DNA from: Escherichia coli
GTDB lineage: Bacteria > Pseudomonadota > Gammaproteobacteria > Enterobacterales > Enterobacteriaceae
Reading direction: 5' to 3' (one strand)
NCBI RefSeq assembly: GCF_024223415.1
Contig: NZ_CP100502.1
DNA length: 64,000 nt
The position numbers and the translations under genes were made by a program. The notes beneath the pieces are model-generated. The model was not told the DNA's origin. It ran no database searches and worked only from the letters and a program-made list of their open reading frames with translations. Below are positions 1 to 31,360 of the stretch, in pieces (position 1 is the stretch's first letter; every line of letters starts with the position of its first letter).

Positions 1-31
1 CCCGACGTTTCCCCGTGGAGTGAACACTGAT

Positions 32-811
32 ATGCAGCACCTGCCGGCACCGATCCACCATGCCCGGGATGCCGCTCAGCTTCCTGTTGCCATCGATTAT
101 CCGGCAGCGCTGGCACTCCGCCAGATGTCGATGGTTCATGATGAACTGCCCAAATACCTGCTGGCCCCTGAAGTGAGCGCCCTGCTCCATTACGTCCCGG
201 ATCTGCGCCGCAAGATGCTGCTGGCCACACTGTGGAACACCGGTGCGCGCATTAATGAAGCACTGGCGCTGACGCGGGGGGATTTTTCGCTCACGCCTCC
301 GTATCCGTTTGTGCAGCTTGCGACCCTGAAACAACGGACCGAAAAAGCCGCCAGGACGGCAGGAAGAACGCCCGCCGGGCAGCAGACTCACCGGCTGGTT
401 CCGCTCTCCGACTCCTGGTACGTCAGCCAGCTGCAGACGATGGTGGCCACACTGAAAATCCCCATGGAACGGCGTAATAAACGAACAGGCAGGACAGAGA
501 AAGCGCGGATCTGGGAAGTGACGGACAGAACGGTCAGGACCTGGATTGGGGAGGCGGTTGCCGCCGCTGCCGCTGATGGAGTGACGTTCTCTGTCCCGGT
601 CACGCCACATACGTTCCGCCATTCCTATGCGATGCATATGCTGTATGCCGGTATACCGCTGAAGGTCCTGCAGAGTCTGATGGGGCATAAGTCCATCAGC
701 TCAACGGAGGTCTACACGAAGGTGTTTGCACTGGATGTGGCTGCACGGCACCGGGTGCAGTTTTCGATGCCTGAGTCCGATGCGGTGTCTATGCTCAAAA
801 GAATTCCATAA
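32..811 (+). CDS. Tyrosine site-specific recombinase, plasmid multimer resolvase (ResD-like)
   Basis: seq: track ORF 20..811 (GTG at 20, ATG at 32; no in-frame stop upstream, so the 5' end may lie outside the window). C-terminal 'TPHTFRHSYAMHMLYAGIPLKVLQSLMGHKSISSTEVYTKV' carries the HxxR...H...Y catalytic signature of tyrosine recombinases. known: ResD-type resolvases sit beside plasmid partition loci. Confidence 0.75.
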   Translation: MQHLPAPIHHARDAAQLPVAIDYPAALALRQMSMVHDELPKYLLAPEVSALLHYVPDLRRKMLLATLWNTGARINEALALTRGDFSLTPPYPFVQLATLKQRTEKAARTAGRTPAGQQTHRLVPLSDSWYVSQLQTMVATLKIPMERRNKRTGRTEKARIWEVTDRTVRTWIGEAVAAAAADGVTFSVPVTPHTFRHSYAMHMLYAGIPLKVLQSLMGHKSISSTEVYTKVFALDVAARHRVQFSMPESDAVSMLKRIP

Positions 812-829
812 GCTCTGACTTTTTTAAAT

Positions 830-990
830 CCCTTTCGGATATCTCATGGATATATTATCGGTATTTCATATTCTGTTGACATGCAGGACCGGTATAGAGT
901 AAAAAAACATCTATTGAGTACCTCTTGGATATCCGAAAGGTGTCTTATGGGGTCTTTATGGGTATTACATGTGGATTCTGGAGATACACT
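830..990. promoter_or_regulatory. Short GGATAT/ATATCC-type repeat cluster upstream of parA (candidate centromere/operator); similar motifs recur at 1636..1721 and 2031..2110
   Basis: seq: repeated 'ggatat', 'gggtatc', 'ggtatcc' motifs flank the parA-parB pair. infer: partition-site or autoregulatory operator. Confidence 0.3.
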
Positions 991-1635
991 ATGCCTGTTA
1001 TTGCTAATACGCATCCCAAAGGTGGTGTGGGTAAGACAACTTCATCCGTAAACATTGTTGGTGAAATGAAGTCTGATACAGTTGATCTGGATACTCATAC
1101 CGGGCTTTCTATCATTCTGGGGCTGAGACCTGAAGGAAAAGAAATTTCCGTGAAAGTACCCAAAACAGTGGATGAGTTAATCGAAATTATGACTCCCTAC
1201 AAGAACAGCGATAAGACGTTACTTATTGACTGTGGGGGATTTGACTCAGATCTTACCCGTACTGCGATTGCCTTTGCAGACTGCGTTATTGTTCCTTCAA
1301 AAGACTCCCTGACTGAACGTATTGGTTTGATGCATTTTGATGGAGTACTGGACGAAATCAGCTCTATCATGGGGACCGATATAACTGCTCACCTGTATCT
1401 CTGTAAAGTTAATCCTAACAAGAAGAAATTCCCTAAGCTTGATGCAATCCTGCCATCGTTCAAACATCTGAAGCTGATGAAGAGCCGCATTTCTGCTCGT
1501 GCAGAATTTGAGGATGTCATTGAGACTGGGATGGGAATCACTGAGTCTGTTCATGGGCGCTATTCGGCAGGAGGTAAGGAAGTTATTGCCCTGATCGAAG
1601 AAATCAATCATCTGATTGAAAATAACAAACAGTAA
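991..1635 (+). CDS. parA: ParA-family partition ATPase
   Basis: seq: deviant Walker A 'KGGVGKTT' right after the start 'MPVIANTHPKGGVGKTTSS'; GGAG RBS 9 nt upstream of ATG 991 (track ORF starts at 925). Confidence 0.8.
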   Translation: MPVIANTHPKGGVGKTTSSVNIVGEMKSDTVDLDTHTGLSIILGLRPEGKEISVKVPKTVDELIEIMTPYKNSDKTLLIDCGGFDSDLTRTAIAFADCVIVPSKDSLTERIGLMHFDGVLDEISSIMGTDITAHLYLCKVNPNKKKFPKLDAILPSFKHLKLMKSRISARAEFEDVIETGMGITESVHGRYSAGGKEVIALIEEINHLIENNKQ

Positions 1636-1721
1636 GGTGTGTCTATTGGGTATCCATATAGTATCCTTTGGGCTTTTAATGGATATCTTTTAAGTATCTA
1701 ACAAACATCCTGGGTTATCTC

Positions 1722-2030
1722 ATGAGCAAAGCGAAATTTAGTGCACAGGCTGAAAAACTGAAAAACCTGGTGGATTCTGCCAGATTACAAACTTCTTCTT
1801 CTGCCGTAACAGCAACAGCCCCGTCTCAGCCAAATGAAGGTGCAGAGGAAGTTTCAGGTCGTCCCGTGGCTGCCAGGACGAAGGCTAAGAATCTTAAGGC
1901 CATACCGCTGTCGTATTTTGAAGCTCATGCGGAACTTAAAGCGACCAGTAAAACATCTCTGGATTTTAGCTCATATATTATTGAGGCTATAAGAGAGAAG
2001 CTTGAACGTGATGGTGCAATAGGTCAATAA
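1722..2030 (+). CDS. Small partition/DNA-binding partner of ParA (ParB/ParG-like)
   Basis: seq: 102-aa ORF immediately downstream of parA, flanked by the GGATA-type repeats. infer: by position only. Confidence 0.4.
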   Translation: MSKAKFSAQAEKLKNLVDSARLQTSSSAVTATAPSQPNEGAEEVSGRPVAARTKAKNLKAIPLSYFEAHAELKATSKTSLDFSSYIIEAIREKLERDGAIGQ

Positions 2031-2443
2031 ACTATCGGATACCTTAAGGGTATCTGATGTGTGTCTTTTAAATGCGTTATGGGGATTCTTCACGTACCTA
2101 AAGAGTCCCCATTAGACATCTTTCTGTTTATGGTGACATGATTCGTCACCGCTTTCCTTTCCTCTCAGTTTCACCATTTCATTCCTTTTCCCTTAACCTG
2201 AACCATGATGTCCACGATGTTTTTATATTGCATTTATGTATCACATATAACCTTCATAATGTTTTTGTATCTATGATTTCCTCTGGTCTTAAAGTTGTGT
2301 GTACAATGTACATGCAATTTATCGTGTTTTTATGTTACATTTGTCCTTTCAAAAAGACCGTTTTTTCATTATAATTGAATATACATTGCATGTATGAAGC
2401 ATGTTTGTTTTTTCTATTTGTTTATGAGCAACGGAGACTGGTT

Positions 2444-3424
2444 ATGAAAATCTTTATTGATGATGGTTCTACCAACATTAAACTTGCCTGGTTGGAGGAT
2501 GGTGACGTGAAAACGTTAATCAGCCCTAACAGCTTTAAACCGGAATGGTCTTTTAGTTTACTGGATGATGCTGCTCCGGCTAATTACGAGATCGACGGCG
2601 AGAAGTTTTCATTTGATCCATTAAGTGCTGATGCTGTCGTAACGACTGAAACACGCTATCAGTACAGTGATGTGAATGTTGTGGCCATTCAGCATGCGCT
2701 ACAGCAGACCGGCCTGAAAGCGCAGCCTGTTGATGTCATCGTCACATTGCCGATCTCTGAATACCTTGACGCCAACAATCAGAAAAATAAGCAAAACATT
2801 GAAAGAAAGAAAAAAAATGTGATGCGTGAAGTACGGGTGCAGGGGAGTGATGCATTTGTTATTCGCAGTGTTTCCGTTCTTCCTGAAAGTATTCCCGCTG
2901 GTTTCAGTGTTCTTGCGGGGCTTGAGGATGATGAATCCCTTTTGATCGTAGATCTCGGTGGTACAACTCTTGATGTGTCGCATGTTCGTAGCAAAATGAC
3001 AGGGATTACAAAAACCTGGTGTGATCCGAATATCGGCGTGTCCCTGATTACATCCGGGGTTAAGGAACAGATGGCTGTACATGCTAATACAAGAGTGAGC
3101 TCATTCCAGGCTGACAATATCATTGTGCACCGTAATGAACCTGACTACCTTTCCCGTCGCATTTATAATGCTGAACAGCGTGAGTCTATCATTAATGTTA
3201 TCAATGAACGGCAGAAGTTGCTTATTAAACGAGTTAATGATGTCATCAGCCGTTTCACCGACTATACACATGTAATGTGTGTTGGTGGTGGGGCTGAAAT
3301 TGTGGCCGAGGCTGTGAAGAACCTGACTAAGGTTCCTGATGAGCGCTTTTATCTGAGCTCATCCCCGCAGTTTGATTTAGTCATGGGAATGATAAAAATG
3401 AAAGGTGGTGTGACTAATGAGTGA
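2444..3424 (+). CDS. parM: ParM/StbA actin-like partition ATPase
   Basis: seq: N-terminus 'MKIFIDDGSTNIKLAW' matches the ParM/StbA phosphate-1 motif; GGAG RBS before ATG 2444 (track ORF from 2375); AT-rich region 2140..2440 upstream. Confidence 0.8.
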   Translation: MKIFIDDGSTNIKLAWLEDGDVKTLISPNSFKPEWSFSLLDDAAPANYEIDGEKFSFDPLSADAVVTTETRYQYSDVNVVAIQHALQQTGLKAQPVDVIVTLPISEYLDANNQKNKQNIERKKKNVMREVRVQGSDAFVIRSVSVLPESIPAGFSVLAGLEDDESLLIVDLGGTTLDVSHVRSKMTGITKTWCDPNIGVSLITSGVKEQMAVHANTRVSSFQADNIIVHRNEPDYLSRRIYNAEQRESIINVINERQKLLIKRVNDVISRFTDYTHVMCVGGGAEIVAEAVKNLTKVPDERFYLSSSPQFDLVMGMIKMKGGVTNE

Positions 3425-3833
3425 TGAAAATAAATCCAGACGCTGCTCATTTGAACTTTTCCCGGATGAACGGACAGGAGATAAGATAGCAGATGAGCTC
3501 ATTGCAAATGAAAAACTGAAGGAGCGGGGACGTTTCATGCGCGCGATGTTAGTTACTGGTGCGGCGTTTGCAGCTATAGATAAACGTCTTCCTTTGCTGA
3601 TATCGGAGTTACTGACAGAAAATACGACTCTGGATGATATTAATAAGGTGATTTCCAGCGTAATACCAGGTGCTTTTTCGGTTGAAAAGAAATTGCTTGA
3701 ATTACTGGAAAAACAATCTGGTCTCCATACGTCTGTGGATTGCAGTACTCCTCTTACAGAGCAGAGTCTGTCGAGAAATGACGGTGAAGACCAGACCAGA
3801 AGAAACGCTGAAAATATGTTCGGAGATGACTGA
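3417..3833 (+). CDS. ParR/StbB-like centromere-binding adaptor
   Basis: seq: 138-aa ORF whose start overlaps the parM stop (translational coupling). infer: by position. Confidence 0.45.
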   Translation: MSDENKSRRCSFELFPDERTGDKIADELIANEKLKERGRFMRAMLVTGAAFAAIDKRLPLLISELLTENTTLDDINKVISSVIPGAFSVEKKLLELLEKQSGLHTSVDCSTPLTEQSLSRNDGEDQTRRNAENMFGDD

Positions 3834-3834
3834 A

Positions 3835-5109
3835 CTAACCCAGCCTGGCCAGGGGAATATCTCGCCATTTAGTTGTATAACACTGACTCAACATTTCCCG
3901 TTTCATTTGCCATTCAGGGGCGGTTCCTCGCCCCGCAAACCACACTTTCCCTTTTCCCGACTGGTTCAGTTCATCGAGTGTTTTCATTAACTTTTCACTG
4001 TTTTTACGGGGCTGGATTTCATCAAATAATCCCGGCTGCGCTATACCCGATGGTGTGAAATCAGCCAGCATGACACCTGCCTTCATATAGCGGTACCCTT
4101 CACGCCAGACATGGTTTAAGGCTCTGCATGCGGCGGCAATAATGTCCCGGCTGTCCTGTGTGGGCAATGGAAGCTTTTCCACAGCGGCATTGCTGTAACA
4201 GGGTTCTTTTACTGCAAAGGGTGATGTCCGTACAAATGTCGTCACCTGCCGGCAATACTGACGCTCCCCACGTAGTTTCTCTGCGGCCCGCTCTGCATAC
4301 TGAACAACAGCCTGGTGCATGGCATCTTTGTCTGTGATTCGTTCACCAAAACTGCGACTACAGACAATCTGCTGTTTTGCCGGTGGTGCTTCTTCCAGGG
4401 ATATGCAGGACTCGCCGTTGAGTTCGCGTACCGTACGCTCAAGAATGACGCTGAAGTTTTTCCGGATGAATGCCGTGTTAGCCTGCGCCAGCTGCAGTGC
4501 TGTGTTAATACCCAGCGCATTCAGCTTTTCCGTCAGTCTGTGTCCTACTCCCCAGACCTCACCAACTGGCTGCAGCCCCAGTAGCTTCAAGATCCGATTA
4601 CGGTTTTCTGCCGTCAGCGCGACCACTCCGGAAAACTGTGGCCATTGCTTTGTTGCCCACTGTGCACTTTTAGCCAGCGTTTTTGTAGGCGCAATGCCCA
4701 CCCCCATGGTGAGTCCTGTCCAGCTCTTTACCTGTTTCCTGAGCTGATGACCAAAAAACTCCGGAGAGATGCAATGATTTATCCCCCGCAAATCAATGAA
4801 CATTTCATCAATTGAGTAGGGCTCAACTGCGGGAGAAAGCGACTCCAGAACAGCCATAACCCGTTGGCTCATGCTGTGGTACAGCGCATAATTGCTGGAA
4901 AATACATGTATTTTCTTCTCCAGGCGCATTTGTCTCACCTGAAACCAGGGCTGCCCCATTCTGATGCCAAGGGCTTTTGCCTCCGGGCTGCGCGCGATCA
5001 CACAGCCATCGTTATTGCTGAGTACGATGACCGGTTCGTTGCGAAGGTCCGGGCGGAAAACTTTTTCACATGAGGCGTAGAAACTGTTGATATCAGCCAG
5101 TGCAAACAT
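3835..5109 (-). CDS. impB: Error-prone translesion polymerase subunit (UmuC family)
   Basis: seq: 424 aa, N-terminus 'MFALADINSFYASCEKVFRPDLRNEPVIVLSNNDGCVIARSPEAKALGI' is the Y-family polymerase signature. known: impCAB is typical of IncI1 plasmids. Confidence 0.9.
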   Translation of the reverse strand: MFALADINSFYASCEKVFRPDLRNEPVIVLSNNDGCVIARSPEAKALGIRMGQPWFQVRQMRLEKKIHVFSSNYALYHSMSQRVMAVLESLSPAVEPYSIDEMFIDLRGINHCISPEFFGHQLRKQVKSWTGLTMGVGIAPTKTLAKSAQWATKQWPQFSGVVALTAENRNRILKLLGLQPVGEVWGVGHRLTEKLNALGINTALQLAQANTAFIRKNFSVILERTVRELNGESCISLEEAPPAKQQIVCSRSFGERITDKDAMHQAVVQYAERAAEKLRGERQYCRQVTTFVRTSPFAVKEPCYSNAAVEKLPLPTQDSRDIIAAACRALNHVWREGYRYMKAGVMLADFTPSGIAQPGLFDEIQPRKNSEKLMKTLDELNQSGKGKVWFAGRGTAPEWQMKREMLSQCYTTKWRDIPLARLG

Positions 5110-5546
5110 CAGCGTAACTCCCGCGTCCTGTGTATCACGTGAGTGACAACACCAAAAATACAGATGTTTTCCGGATACAGTGTGCGGAACTCCGGGCTGT
5201 CTGAAACCGGCTCCAGTGCCGGGCGTGGGCGCAACAGCAGTCGTTTGACGGTGAACTCACCGTCGATCTCAGCGATAACGATGTCCCCGTGTTGTGGTTT
5301 TTCGGCCCTGTCCACTACCAGCAGATCACCATTCTGCACGCCAGCCTGGTTCATCGATTCACCGCTGGCGCGCAGAAAGAAGGTGGCTGCAGGTCTGCTG
5401 ATGCAATAGCTGTTCAGATCCAGTTCCTGCTCAGCATAATCAGTGGCAGGCGAAGGAAAACCGGCCTGGCAACGATCGGCAAACAACGGTCGCACGTAAC
5501 TGTCATCGCCTGAAGGGTCAGCCGGACGGTGATAAACGGTACTCAT
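5109..5546 (-). CDS. impA: UmuD-like LexA-family self-cleaving protein
   Basis: seq: 145 aa with S24-peptidase-like region 'ASGESMNQAGVQNGDLLVVDRAE'; start overlaps the impB region. Confidence 0.85.
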   Translation of the reverse strand: MSTVYHRPADPSGDDSYVRPLFADRCQAGFPSPATDYAEQELDLNSYCISRPAATFFLRASGESMNQAGVQNGDLLVVDRAEKPQHGDIVIAEIDGEFTVKRLLLRPRPALEPVSDSPEFRTLYPENICIFGVVTHVIHRTRELR

Positions 5547-5791
5547 GCTGCAGGCAGCCAGCTGTCGTCCTGCCAGATTTCTTCCAGCAGAGACAGGATA
5601 CGTTCTTTATCCTTGTCGTTGCGGGCTCCTGTGACAGATACAGACGGGGCGCTGCCCTGGTCTATACGCAGCCAGATTTCCGGGTAGTGTGGTTTCAGAC
5701 GTTGTTCGATTTCATTCTGTAGCGCCTGAAGTGTGCCTGATTTGAGGTTTTTTGTGCTCTGGCGGTCGAAAAGAATTTCAATGCGGATCAT
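5543..5791 (-). CDS. impC: ImpC, small first gene of the impCAB operon
   Basis: seq: 82-aa ORF overlapping the impA start. known: size and order match impCAB. Confidence 0.7.
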   Translation of the reverse strand: MIRIEILFDRQSTKNLKSGTLQALQNEIEQRLKPHYPEIWLRIDQGSAPSVSVTGARNDKDKERILSLLEEIWQDDSWLPAA

Positions 5792-5812
5792 GTTCTCATC
5801 TCCCTTTTCTTT

Positions 5813-5832
5813 TGCTGTATGTATATACAGTA
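5813..5832. promoter_or_regulatory. LexA (SOS) box upstream of impC
   Basis: seq: 'tgCTGTatgtatatACAGta' fits CTGT-N8-ACAG about 25 to 40 nt upstream of the impC start. Confidence 0.6.
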
Positions 5833-5959
5833 TTCTAATAACTGAATCCGCACACAGTCAAATGTCATTGTTGTGACTAAAAAACGCTCAATTCTCTGAG
5901 TGTGTGGCTGTATGCCTGCTGTGGGCTGCTGTGTCCAGCTTATCCACAGCATTTTGTGC

Positions 5960-6160
5960 ACGGTTCTGTGGACAAAATACCTGGTTACCCAGGCCGTGCC
6001 GGCACGTTAACCGGGCTGCATCCGATGCAAGTGTGTCGCTGTCGCCGGCCTCCTCACCCGGTCACGTTTCGTCGTTCCTCCTCCACGCGCTGCGGCTTCG
6101 GGGCCGCACCTGCATTCGTATGCGGTCGCCCGGTAACAGGTGCGGCACGGCCTGATGGAG
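5960..6160. repeat. GC-rich structured region with loose similarity to the family-A ssi-like repeat
   Basis: seq: 'gcatccgatgcaagtgtgtcgctgtcgccggcctcctcacccggtcac' resembles the family-A core 'gggatgcaagggtacgcttcgccgctgcggtcacccggtc'; lies directly upstream of the + strand ORF at 6185. Confidence 0.3.
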
Positions 6161-12516: not shown

Positions 12517-12792
<276 letters not shown>

Positions 12793-12850
12793 GAGAGGTG
12801 CCGGACGCGCGAACGTCCGGCAGGACATAAGCAATTATAAGGGGATGATT

Positions 12851-14809
12851 ATGCCTGTAACGAAGTGTGAACCAGAAACCACCCGCAAAGCAAGCCGTAA
12901 ATCTGCAAAAACGCAGGAAACTGCCCTGTCTGCCCTGCTGGCGCAGACGGAGGAAGTGAGCGTGCCGCTGGCCTCACTGATTAAATCACCGCTGAATGTG
13001 CGCACGGTGCCGTATTCTGTGGAGTCCGTCAGCGAACTGGCTGGGTCCATTAAGGGCGTTGGCCTGTTGCAGAATCTGGTCGTGCATACCCTGCCTGGTG
13101 ACCGTTACGGTGTCGCCGCAGGTGGTCGCCGACTGGCTGCACTCAACATGCTGGCAGAGCGCAACATCCTTCCGGCTGACTGGCCTGTCCGTGTGAAGGT
13201 CATCCCGCAGGAACTGGCGACTGCCGCATCGATGACCGAGAACGGTCATCGTCGGGATATGCACCCTGCCGAACAGATTGCCGGATTCCGCGCATTGGCG
13301 CAGGAAGGCAAAACACCTGCACAGACTGGCGACCTGCTGGGCTATTCACCCCGCCACGTTCAGCGAATGCTGAAACTGGCAGACCTTGCGCCTGTCATCC
13401 TCGATGCGCTGGCAGAGGACCGCATCACCACCGAGCACTGTCAGGCGCTGGCGCTGGAGAGCGACACCGCGCGTCAGGTGCAGGTGTTTGAAGCGGCCTG
13501 CCAGTCAGGATGGGGCGGTAAACCGGATGTGCGGGTTATCCGCAACCTGATTACGGAAAGTGAAGTGGCAGTGAAGGACAACACTAAATTCCGCTTTGTG
13601 GGGGCTGATGCCTTCTCGCCAGACGAATTGCGCACCGATTTGTTCAGCGATGACGGGGACGGTTATGTCGACCGCGTGGCGCTCGATGCCGCCCTGCTGG
13701 AAAAACTCCAGGCTGTTGCAGAGTTCCTTCGGGAAGCCGAAGGCTGGGAATGGTGCGCCGGGCGCATGGAGCCTGTCGGTGAGTGCCGTGAGGATGCCGG
13801 AACATACCGCTGTCTGCCGGAGCCGGAAGCGGTGCTGACGGAGGCGGAAGACGAACGCCTGAACGAACTGATGACGCGTTACGACGCGCTGGAAAACCAG
13901 TGTGAGGAATCCGACCTGCTGGAAGCAGAAATGAAGCTGATGCGCTGCATGGCGAAGGTCAGAGCGTGGACGCCGGAGATACGTGCCGGAAGCGGTGTGG
14001 TGGTGTCCTGGCGTTATGGCAACGTATGTGTCCAGCGTGGTGTGCAGTTGCGCAGTGAAGATGACGCGACTGACGACGCTGACCGCACGGAACAGGTGCA
14101 GGAGAAAGCGTCAGTGGAGGAAATCAGCCTGCCGTTGCTGACGAAAATGTCCTCAGAGCGCACGCTGGCAGTCCAGGCGGCACTCATGCAGCAGCCGGAC
14201 AAATCTCTGGCACTGCTGGCATGGACGCTCTGCCTGAATGTGTTTGGCAGCGGGGCGTACAGTAAACCAGCACAAATCAGCCTGGAATGTGAACATTATT
14301 CGCTGACCAGCGATGCGCCATCGGGGAAGGAAGGTGCCGCATTCATGGCGCTGATGGCAGAAAAATCCCGTCTTGCAGCCCTGCTGCCGGAGGGATGGTC
14401 ACGGGACATGACGACATTCCTGTCCCTCAGTCAGGAGGTGCTGTTATCCCTGCTCAGTTTCTGCACCGCATGCAGCCTTAACGGTGTCCAGACCCGTGAG
14501 TGTGGTCACACGTCACGCAGTCCGCTTGACTCGCTGGAAAGCGCTATCGGATTCCACATGCGCGACTGGTGGCAGCCGACAAAAGCAAACTTCTTCGGAC
14601 ACCTGAAAAAGCCGCAGATTATCGCAGCCCTGAATGAGGCCGGACTGTCCGGTGCCGCACGGGACGCGGAGAAGATGAAGAAAGGTGATGCGGCTGAACA
14701 TGCAGAGCACCATATGAAAGACAACCGCTGGGTTCCAGGCTGGATGTGTGCACCACATCCACAGACAGATGCCACTGAACGCACCGATAACCTGGCTGAT
14801 GCCGCCTGA
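12851..14809 (+). CDS. Large ParB/Sulfiredoxin-domain (ParB-like nuclease) protein
   Basis: seq: N-terminal ParB-like region 'LIKSPLNVRTVPYSVESVSELAGSIKGVGLLQNLVVH...GGRRLAALNML'; AAGGGG RBS before ATG 12851 (track from 12761). known: a large ParB-like gene sits between ssb and psiB in F/IncI leading regions. Confidence 0.7.
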   Translation: MPVTKCEPETTRKASRKSAKTQETALSALLAQTEEVSVPLASLIKSPLNVRTVPYSVESVSELAGSIKGVGLLQNLVVHTLPGDRYGVAAGGRRLAALNMLAERNILPADWPVRVKVIPQELATAASMTENGHRRDMHPAEQIAGFRALAQEGKTPAQTGDLLGYSPRHVQRMLKLADLAPVILDALAEDRITTEHCQALALESDTARQVQVFEAACQSGWGGKPDVRVIRNLITESEVAVKDNTKFRFVGADAFSPDELRTDLFSDDGDGYVDRVALDAALLEKLQAVAEFLREAEGWEWCAGRMEPVGECREDAGTYRCLPEPEAVLTEAEDERLNELMTRYDALENQCEESDLLEAEMKLMRCMAKVRAWTPEIRAGSGVVVSWRYGNVCVQRGVQLRSEDDATDDADRTEQVQEKASVEEISLPLLTKMSSERTLAVQAALMQQPDKSLALLAWTLCLNVFGSGAYSKPAQISLECEHYSLTSDAPSGKEGAAFMALMAEKSRLAALLPEGWSRDMTTFLSLSQEVLLSLLSFCTACSLNGVQTRECGHTSRSPLDSLESAIGFHMRDWWQPTKANFFGHLKKPQIIAALNEAGLSGAARDAEKMKKGDAAEHAEHHMKDNRWVPGWMCAPHPQTDATERTDNLADAA

Positions 14810-30353: not shown

Positions 30354-30505
30354 GACAAAGTCTCCATTTCTGGAATTTAAATCAAACGGAAAGGTTAAAA
30401 ATTTATTTGCAGGCGATAAGAGCTAACCAGAGGAATTAGCCGTGCGATAAAAGGATTGTTGCAGATACGAAAGTCGTTAGAATAGCTGCGGGCGCTTGAG
30501 GCTGT

Positions 30506-30790
30506 ATGCCGAAAGCGTTTTGTGGACGGTATACAGCAGAAAGCCCCTGGAGATTTTTTTATCAATCAACCAAGGGCTCTACTGTAATGCCTAGACAACA
30601 TTATAGTAGCCCGATAACCGCCGTAAGGCAATGGAGGGGCTATGATGCCACAGCGAACGTTTTTAATGATGTTAATCGTCATCTGTGTGACGATTCTGTG
30701 TTTTGTCTGGATGGTGAGGGATTCGCTTTGCGGACTCCGGCTCCAGCAGGGAAACACAGTGCTTGTGGCAACGTTAGCCTACGAAGTTAA
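30506..30790 (+). CDS. pndC: pndC (mok-like) overlapping reading frame
   Basis: seq: ORF overlapping pndA in another frame and ending 7 nt before its stop, as in hok/mok loci. Confidence 0.45.
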   Translation: MPKAFCGRYTAESPWRFFYQSTKGSTVMPRQHYSSPITAVRQWRGYDATANVFNDVNRHLCDDSVFCLDGEGFALRTPAPAGKHSACGNVSLRS

Positions 30791-31263: not shown

Positions 31264-31294
31264 CAACAGATGTAAAAAAACCGACTGGTGAGGT
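31264..31294. terminator. Bidirectional Rho-independent terminator
   Basis: seq: 'aaaaaaaccgacTGGTGAGgtcggttttttt', 6-bp stem flanked by an A-run and a T-run. Confidence 0.6.
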
Positions 31295-31336
31295 CGGTTT
31301 TTTTACTGTTCCGTTACAGAGTGGGTGGCCCTGACC

Positions 31337-31360
31337 GGAGGAAATCTCTTTTCAACTAAC
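31337..31360 (+). repeat. 24-bp direct repeat copy 1 (ggaggaaatctcttttcaactaac)
   Basis: seq: repeated at 31524..31547 with one mismatch; followed by TATAAT-like hexamers at 31366 and 31403; its first 10 nt are the reverse complement of 31593..31602. Confidence 0.8.

Follow-up and report, generated by a model that had tools for sequence, protein, structure and literature searches.

A type Ib and a type II partition system standing side by side on one plasmid are known from the double par locus of pB171, in which two operons reportedly diverge from a shared central centromere, parC1, with both adaptors acting there. Among other described systems, the ParMRC locus of R1 and R100 (stbAB) is of type II, the parC of R1 being composed of ten 11-bp iterons, while TP228 (ParF/ParG/parH) and pSM19035 (delta/omega) each combine a small ParA with an adaptor whose small C-terminal domain is preceded by a flexible N-terminal arm, the binding arrays of pSM19035 preceding both genes. 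Here we analyzed a 64,000-nucleotide stretch of Escherichia coli DNA (contig NZ_CP100502.1 of assembly GCF_024223415.1), called the window below and meant at its full length, near the start of which a ParA-type pair (yefA-yegA, 991..2030) and a ParM/ParR pair (2444..3833) follow resD, the gene of a ResD-like resolvase. An earlier note on this DNA had regarded such an arrangement as unusual and had asked whether both systems are active, whether they cross-talk, or whether one of them is the remnant of a cointegrate. We find the locus to be an ordinary, conserved and already known one, not an oddity, in which two intact and almost always co-inherited partition modules form transcriptionally and physically separate units, and we lean towards both of them being active and independent of each other.

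All five genes named in that note were recovered exactly at the positions it gave, supported by Pfam or other sequence matches except in the case of YegA, which has no family match, and they are among the eight genes that make up the first 5.8 kb of the window. Positions 1-6000 share 100% DNA identity with many IncI1-type plasmids of E. coli, Salmonella, Shigella and Klebsiella (for example pESBL-283), and R64, the IncI1 archetype, is 99.7% identical over positions 1-5608, with identical YefA, YegA and ParR proteins and with gene order and orientation unchanged. Judged from this identity, the region is almost certainly the canonical IncI1 (R64-type) stability and maintenance block, which is common and has been sequenced many times already; set against the stability region of R64 and ColIb-P9, the locus is the same with no difference of substance, and the window comes from a close relative. 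In an R64-style annotated record the genes read yedA, resD, yefA (a Walker ParA), yegA (102 amino acids, aa), parA (the ParM homologue), parB (the ParR homologue) and impB, so that "parAB of R64" in the literature denotes the type II ParM/ParR pair. Among 72,556 PLSDB plasmids, the type Ib unit was present at high coverage in 1,119, the R64-type ParMR in 1,078 and the two contiguously in 1,075, and the pB171-type pair was found at high coverage in ~959 more. Given these numbers, and given that the pairing belongs to the R64 backbone, a type I and a type II system side by side can hardly be called unusual.

The pB171 double par locus is a close counterpart, as it also places a type Ib next to a type II system, fills the same slot between resD and impB in sister plasmids and is about as common. 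One such sister plasmid (L006) carries a ParR that is essentially the solved pB171 ParR (PDB entry 2jd3, E 9.6e-79), which identifies its cassette as the pB171 double par locus. By contrast, the parts are largely different: between L006 and the window, identity is 19% for ParA, 37% for ParM and 31% for ParR (over 80 aa), the ParB adaptors are not alignable, and the divergent arrangement seen in L006 is replaced in the window by tandem units with a terminator-like hairpin between them.

Within the I-complex, the experimentally validated partition locus is that of pESBL and pMS7163B, which was needed for segregation in transposon-sequencing (Tn-seq) and transposon-directed insertion-site sequencing (TraDIS) screens (PMC7602700, PMC10286972). 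This ParABS system resembles yefA-yegA in having a small ParA, an adaptor of ~100 aa without known motifs, repeats both upstream and downstream, and a slot adjoining impB. However, its ParA is 24% identical to YefA, its adaptor is unrelated to YegA, its repeat is the octamer GATAACAA, its orientation is opposite, and it has neither a resD nor a ParMR partner. No copy of this octamer exists in the par region of the window, the three copies in the whole window being at chance level, and pESBL-EA11 gave no DNA match to window positions 820-3891. According to PMC10286972, pESBL contains R64 parAB at 100% and pMS7163B has another system; the claim that pESBL carries the R64 par genes was rejected, as no DNA match to 820-3891 was obtained. 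The ParA and ParB of pESBL-EA11 (NC_018659, 49994-50919) and of pMS7163B share the accessions WP_000587689.1 and WP_001245884.1, so the two published screens seem to have validated one system. For Shigella pINV, too, one plasmid has been reported to carry two functional partition systems (PMC6519299).

The yefA-yegA unit and its phased repeats

The first partition unit opens with yefA (991..1635, + strand), which encodes a small Walker-type ParA ATPase of 214 aa. Reading of the sequence places a deviant Walker A motif, KGGVGKT, at residues 10-16 and the Walker B motif at LLIDCGG, and the protein matches Pfam AAA_31, MipZ and CbiA as well as the NCBIfam ParA_partition profile, the latter over positions 1-202 of 203 at 53.9 bits, which is below its cut-off. 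Type Ib is distinguished by a ParA of ~200-230 aa that carries a deviant Walker A motif and lacks an N-terminal DNA-binding domain, and YefA has all three features. Starting 86 bp after yefA, yegA (1722..2030, + strand) encodes a 102-aa putative centromere-binding adaptor, the presumed type Ib analogue of ParB. Comparison with a 92%-identical copy (L008) gave ratios of nonsynonymous to synonymous substitution rates (dN/dS) of 0.095 for YefA and 0.28 for YegA, and in the copy on a Salmonella salamae plasmid (L007) synonymous sites are saturated, yet amino-acid identity is still 82% for YefA and 71% for YegA. Both type Ib reading frames are intact and, as these substitution patterns indicate, under purifying selection.

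Around these genes lie ~25 copies of an 11-bp iteron with the consensus ATGGrTATCTT, distributed over four arrays, of which A, B and C are on the + strand. Array A (835-867; three units in 11-bp phase) and array B (925-990; five to six units, reaching the yefA start codon) are separated by a TTGACA hexamer at 876-881, and the two together represent the putative operator and centromere of the type Ib system. Array C (1635-1721) fills the spacer between yefA and yegA with eight units in 11-bp phase, and array D follows yegA with a direct part (2035-2089) and an inverted part (2092-2124) that mirrors array B. This mirroring is seen as an inverted repeat (I1) between 935-964 and 2095-2124, 30 nt long with 80% complementarity. 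The GGATA-type repeats that the earlier note saw flanking the ParA pair are therefore real, and more extensive than described, extending also into the spacer between the two genes.

The core GGNTATC occurs seven times in 365 non-coding bases, compared with 0.28 expected from the rest of the window (P ~2e-8). Phasing at 11 bp exceeded that of shuffled sequences for arrays A and B (p<0.0002; shift-11 autocorrelation 0.445 vs 0.266 in shuffles), array C (p=0.001) and array D (p ~0.01-0.02), while coding controls showed none. The module of the Salmonella salamae copy, with a DNA identity of 74%, keeps the TTGACA hexamer as well as the iteron cores and their placement upstream, in the spacer and downstream.

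For YegA, no match was obtained in Pfam, in NCBIfam or, by phmmer and hmmsearch, among PDB sequences, apart from sub-threshold Pfam matches to DUF3950. In alignments of its homologues, residues 1-25 form a conserved N-terminal arm, which a hypervariable linker joins to a C-terminal domain of ~50 residues (53-102) that is conserved as well. A profile of this C-terminal domain recovered 57 cluster representatives among 1.8 billion proteins, most of them 70-118 aa long and alike in layout. For distant members, at ~35-45% identity, all three loci that were looked up place the gene 45-80 bp downstream of a 208-215-aa CbiA/AAA_31 ATPase. Repeats lie both upstream of the gene for this ATPase and within the spacer leading to the adaptor gene, and an 11-bp spacing inside arrays is clear in two loci (L013 and L016). 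This conservation of gene order and repeat placement is the strongest evidence for YegA as the centromere-binding partner of YefA.

Some further properties of the family were observed along the way. The surroundings of the distant loci L011, L016 and L017 resemble those of phages or phage-plasmids, an AcrIF11-like protein, an N6/N4 methylase and a protein like an S24 repressor being encoded nearby, and in L016 the whole upstream region of parA, with iterons, ribosome-binding site and start, is duplicated ahead of the adaptor gene. In many NCBI records YegA and its homologues are labelled "molecular chaperone GroEL"; with no similarity of YegA to GroEL-sized proteins or domains, this name looks like a propagated annotation error.

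An AlphaFold2 model of the YegA monomer (48-sequence alignment; mean predicted local distance difference test score, pLDDT, 68) has three helices (3-19, 63-75 and 78-97), disordered stretches at 26-33 and 38-46, and no strand. The predicted secondary structure is compatible with a ribbon-helix-helix monomer, and the strand/helix/G-x-T/helix pattern predicted for the C-terminal domain resembles the ribbon-helix-helix of the TP228 and pSM19035 adaptors. A fused-dimer model, in which two C-terminal domains were joined by a Gly-Ser linker to mimic a dimer, reached a pLDDT of 54 and was unusable, and a Foldseek search of the PDB with the monomer model returned no match. Comparisons by hhalign with the pB171-type ParB, the pESBL ParB and ParG were not significant (that with ParG serving as a lead only), the short pieces aligned falling in the expected register of the strand and first helix. 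Likewise, phmmer with YefA did not recover TP228 ParF, and YegA had no significant match to ParG or to any PDB entry. Arginine 21 of YegA was considered as a ParG-like arginine finger; it is invariant in close homologues, not in the wider family, and no such role is claimed. As to architecture, the yefA-yegA unit has arrays ahead of both genes, as does pSM19035.

Taken together, yefA-yegA is assigned to a type Ib family that is apparently uncharacterised. Going further, yefA-yegA may be a functional type Ib system and the founder of an adaptor family of 70-118 aa that has no Pfam model and whose signature is a set of 11-bp-phased arrays before both genes and downstream of them; this fuller proposal is tentative, and we hold it with somewhat less than even confidence.

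The parM-parR unit and its separation from yefA-yegA

The second unit starts with parM (2444..3424, + strand; parA of R64), encoding an actin-like type II partition ATPase of 326 aa. It matches Pfam StbA_N (E 5e-82) and the ParM C-terminal domain (E 2.5e-72), contains the motifs DDGSTN, DLGGTT and GGGA, and shares 53% identity with R1 ParM across 314 residues (E 6e-104), with a dN/dS of 0.036. The type II adaptor gene parR (3417..3833, + strand; parB of R64; 138 aa) has 8 bp in common with the end of parM, and only 1 bp separates its own end from the stop codon of the convergent impB. Its product matches Pfam Plasmid_stab_B (E 7.6e-28) and finds its best PDB match in pB171 ParR (2jd3, E 2e-6). 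The unit thus resembles the ParMRC of R1 and R100 in its ParM, in its Plasmid_stab_B-type ParR, in the overlap of the adaptor gene with the end of parM, and in an AT-rich, repeat-bearing putative promoter region upstream.

The spacer between yegA and parM (2031-2443, 413 bp) has a G+C fraction of 0.34, and the putative parC and promoter region was placed at 2200..2443 (+ strand) from its position upstream of parM, a promoter-like site and repeats. The promoter-like site at 2348-2375 (TTCAAA-16-TATAAT) matches at 10 of 12 positions and is flanked by TACATGCAAT-type inverted repeats at 2304-2322 and 2373-2394; direct repeats occur at 2218-2243, 2325-2344 and 2382-2401, and positions 2200-2443 show a weak 11-bp periodicity (p=0.005). 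R1 parC differs in that its ten clear 11-bp iterons are not evident here, where a few direct and inverted repeats and the weak periodicity are found instead. Since no clear iteron set is evident, the assignment of parC upstream of parM, made from position, is given as probable.

Between the two units lies a terminator-like hairpin (2131..2151, + strand) with a 7-bp stem and a T-rich tail, which follows array D and closes the type Ib unit. On an IncFIA plasmid of enterotoxigenic E. coli (L010), ccdA-ccdB-resD is followed by the type Ib unit, array D included, with no ParMR behind it, and similarity to the window stops just past the hairpin, setting the boundary of the type Ib unit at ~2172. Both units are on the + strand in tandem, with the hairpin and the separate promoter-like site between them, and the core motifs GGNTATC and GGDTATY have no copy in 2131-2443, degenerate units of the kind that make up much of arrays A-D not having been searched for there. 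The two partition units are thus separate both in transcription and physically. We saw no evidence for a shared centromere of the pB171 kind, even though the 413-bp spacer contains both array D and the parM promoter. In the plasmid collection, ~44 PLSDB plasmids keep the type Ib unit without the R64-type ParMR.

The resD-impB slot and the exchange of par cassettes

On its left side the pair of par units is bordered by resD (32..811, + strand; the longest open reading frame runs from a GTG at 20, and the start at 32 is that of the NCBI annotation pipeline, PGAP), which encodes a ResD-like tyrosine recombinase presumed to be a multimer resolvase. The protein matches Pfam Phage_integrase over profile positions 2-168 of 172 (E 2.5e-18), gives sub-threshold NCBIfam matches of the XerC/XerD kind, and finds XerD and XerC in the PDB. 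It is 94% identical to the integrase downstream of ccdA-ccdB on the IncFIA plasmid, which has the F-type ResD arrangement, the comparison being with this ccdAB-linked integrase and not with the ResD of the F plasmid itself, and 91% identical to the recombinase beside the pB171-type locus of L006. The F plasmid ResD (ccdA-ccdB-resD) is alike in its tyrosine recombinase domain; by contrast, resD in the window follows yedA, inside which the window starts, and not ccdAB. The right flank is formed by the convergent genes impB (3835-5109), impA (5109-5546) and impC (5543-5791), all on the - strand, with Pfam IMS, Peptidase_S24 and DinI matches across the three.

Different par cassettes were found in this slot. 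In pESBL-EA11 and pMS7163B a single, unrelated type Ib system adjoins impB, while in L006 the 91%-identical ResD is followed by divergent ParA/ParB and ParM/ParR genes between resD and impB. In the Salmonella salamae plasmid, an R64-type type Ib unit adjoins impB, resD is truncated to 131 aa, and a third ParM/ParR, whose ParM is 39% identical to that of the window, lies beyond impAB. The R64-type, pB171-type and S. salamae loci together indicate that pairs of type Ib and type II systems recur in three arrangements from largely unrelated parts. Within the S. salamae plasmid (CP053327.1, 8289-9982), the ParR after ParM is 214 aa long and has two Plasmid_stab_B stretches in tandem, and the pair takes the place where impC would be.

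The par modules have G+C fractions of 0.43-0.45, compared with 0.52-0.59 in resD and impAB, and among plasmids with different par cassettes similarity always resumes at window position 3892, 57 bp inside the 3' end of impB. This breakpoint implies that ImpB's last 19 codons go with the par cassette and not with the rest of impB. These observations support the view that the resD-impB slot is a recombination hot spot, and not the scar of a single cointegrate, at which I-complex and F-type plasmids exchange par cassettes. In many IncF plasmids, of which pS88 (NC_011747) is an example, there is a ~98%-identical copy of window positions 3671-4360 only, which comprises the last 163 bp of parR (unannotated) and the 3' part of impB (annotated as a truncated polymerase). 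These copies appear to be what remains of the R64-type parR/impB junction in F-type plasmids.

What follows in the window agrees with an IncI1 leading and transfer region, with ssb, a ParB_N/HTH_ParB protein, psiA, the NikB relaxase and sok. The ParB_N/HTH_ParB protein is the product of a third partition-like gene (12761-14809; 682 aa) between ssb and psiB/psiA, the counterpart of which ("parB_2", ParB-like) was dispensable for maintenance of pMS7163B (PMC10286972). Rfam models located two RNAs at 30490-30647 and 31272-31359, the antitoxin sok (134 bits) and an antisense RNA of the AgrB-like kind (55 bits), and the matching pESBL region encodes Hok/Gef and DinQ-like toxins. The sok and AgrB-like RNAs are further stability or toxin-antitoxin elements on the same plasmid.

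Two partition systems on one IncI1 backbone

We propose that three separate maintenance devices have been placed between the plasmid backbone and the impCAB operon. ResD would presumably resolve plasmid multimers at a site outside the examined part of the window. In the type Ib cassette (~812-2172), YegA would bind the ~25 iterons and, through its conserved N-terminal arm, may stimulate YefA, so that the plasmid would be positioned on the nucleoid as in other ParA systems, the upstream arrays possibly doubling as an operator for autoregulation. The type II cassette (~2173-3833) would act as a ParMRC, in which ParR binds at the repeats that surround the parM promoter and, as in R1, filaments of ParM drive sister plasmids away from each other. 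As a whole, we consider this explanation probable; the claim within it that both partition systems are active and independent is held with somewhat less assurance.

Several points weigh against it. No functional study of yefA/yegA or of R64 ParM/ParR was found in the literature searched, and the published par experiments in the I-complex concern the unrelated pESBL/pMS7163B system (PMC7602700, PMC10286972); in one preprint, large deletions that include "parM/parB" correlate with instability, as a correlation only. By sequence (Pfam, PDB, hhalign) and by fold (Foldseek), YegA has no detectable link to any known centromere-binding protein. The parC region contains seven promoter-like matches compared with 7.4 expected from shuffled sequences, and what else supports it is a few modest repeats. 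ParR gave a dN/dS of 1.15, a value based on four amino-acid differences and disregarded as uninformative for having so few substitutions. Finally, a contribution of both systems to stability in any given host cannot be concluded from intactness and linkage.

A rival reading is that only one of the two works in E. coli, the other being redundant and serving as a back-up, as a host-range extender or mainly as a transcriptional regulator. We regard this as unlikely, if far from negligible. In its favour, pESBL and pMS7163B do with just one type Ib system in that slot, one required for correct segregation in the Tn-seq/TraDIS screens (PMC7602700, PMC10286972), and the ~44 plasmids that have the type Ib unit and no R64-type ParMR point in the same direction. 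However, both modules are under purifying selection and are inherited together in 1,075 of the 1,078 ParMR carriers, and the recurrence of a type Ib plus type II pairing in three arrangements with unrelated components argues that the combination itself is selected. That YefA and YegA might not serve partition at all, forming instead a ParA-like positioning or regulatory pair, accessory for instance to ResD recombination, seems very improbable. PMC4541600 groups "resD and yefA" under site-specific recombination in R64, and YegA matches no known ParB family. By contrast, the unit displays every structural hallmark of type Ib (a small deviant-Walker ParA, an adjacent adaptor downstream, and repeats iterated on the upstream and on the downstream side), it is present in the S. 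salamae plasmid, where resD is not intact, and its distant relatives have phage-like neighbours and, in the flanks examined, no gene with an integrase domain.

Cross-talk of the two systems by way of a composite centromere, in the manner of the pB171 double par locus, might be expected from array D (2035-2124) lying only ~100-220 bp upstream of the parM promoter region in the same 413-bp spacer, and from the pB171-type locus filling the same slot in sister plasmids. Nevertheless, the units are tandem and not divergent, the terminator-like hairpin and a separate promoter divide them, array D travels with the type Ib unit where ParMR is absent, the intervening 2131-2443 has no GGNTATC/GGDTATY core (degenerate units were not searched for there), and the proteins share no more than 19-37% identity with the pB171-type set, YegA having no similarity to its ParB. 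Such cross-talk is therefore not indicated, and we consider it improbable. Decay of one locus, left over from an old cointegrate and contributing nothing, is hardly credible. The lower G+C content relative to the flanks and the sharp boundaries do suggest that the par modules were acquired by recombination, and IncF plasmids carry what a true relic of the junction looks like, the last 163 bp of parR with a truncated impB. In the window, however, all four reading frames are intact with catalytic motifs, full-length domain matches, low dN/dS and conserved arrays, and R64 and more than 1,000 records share the arrangement unchanged. With both modules intact, conserved and nearly always inherited together, neither is likely to be the remnant of a cointegrate, and we retain two active and independent partition systems as the likeliest reading.

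The points that are new here are modest, namely an apparently uncharacterised type Ib family, an adaptor often mislabelled "GroEL" and arrays before both genes, and their context is of practical weight. [quoted passage not shown] The names in use are confusing, as parA/parB of R64 are ParM/ParR and the true ParA pair is yefA and yegA, while the validated I-complex system of pESBL and pMS7163B is a cassette different from the R64 type. Curing or incompatibility interventions against R64-type IncI1 plasmids would have two intact partition systems to face. As "parAB of R64" refers to ParM/ParR, the main ParA-type partition system of the commonest IncI1 plasmids may have been overlooked, should yefA-yegA prove functional. 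In that case, three unrelated type Ib plus type II pairs at the resD/impAB slot would mean that the combination is selected, for example for joining positioning with pushing or for serving different hosts.

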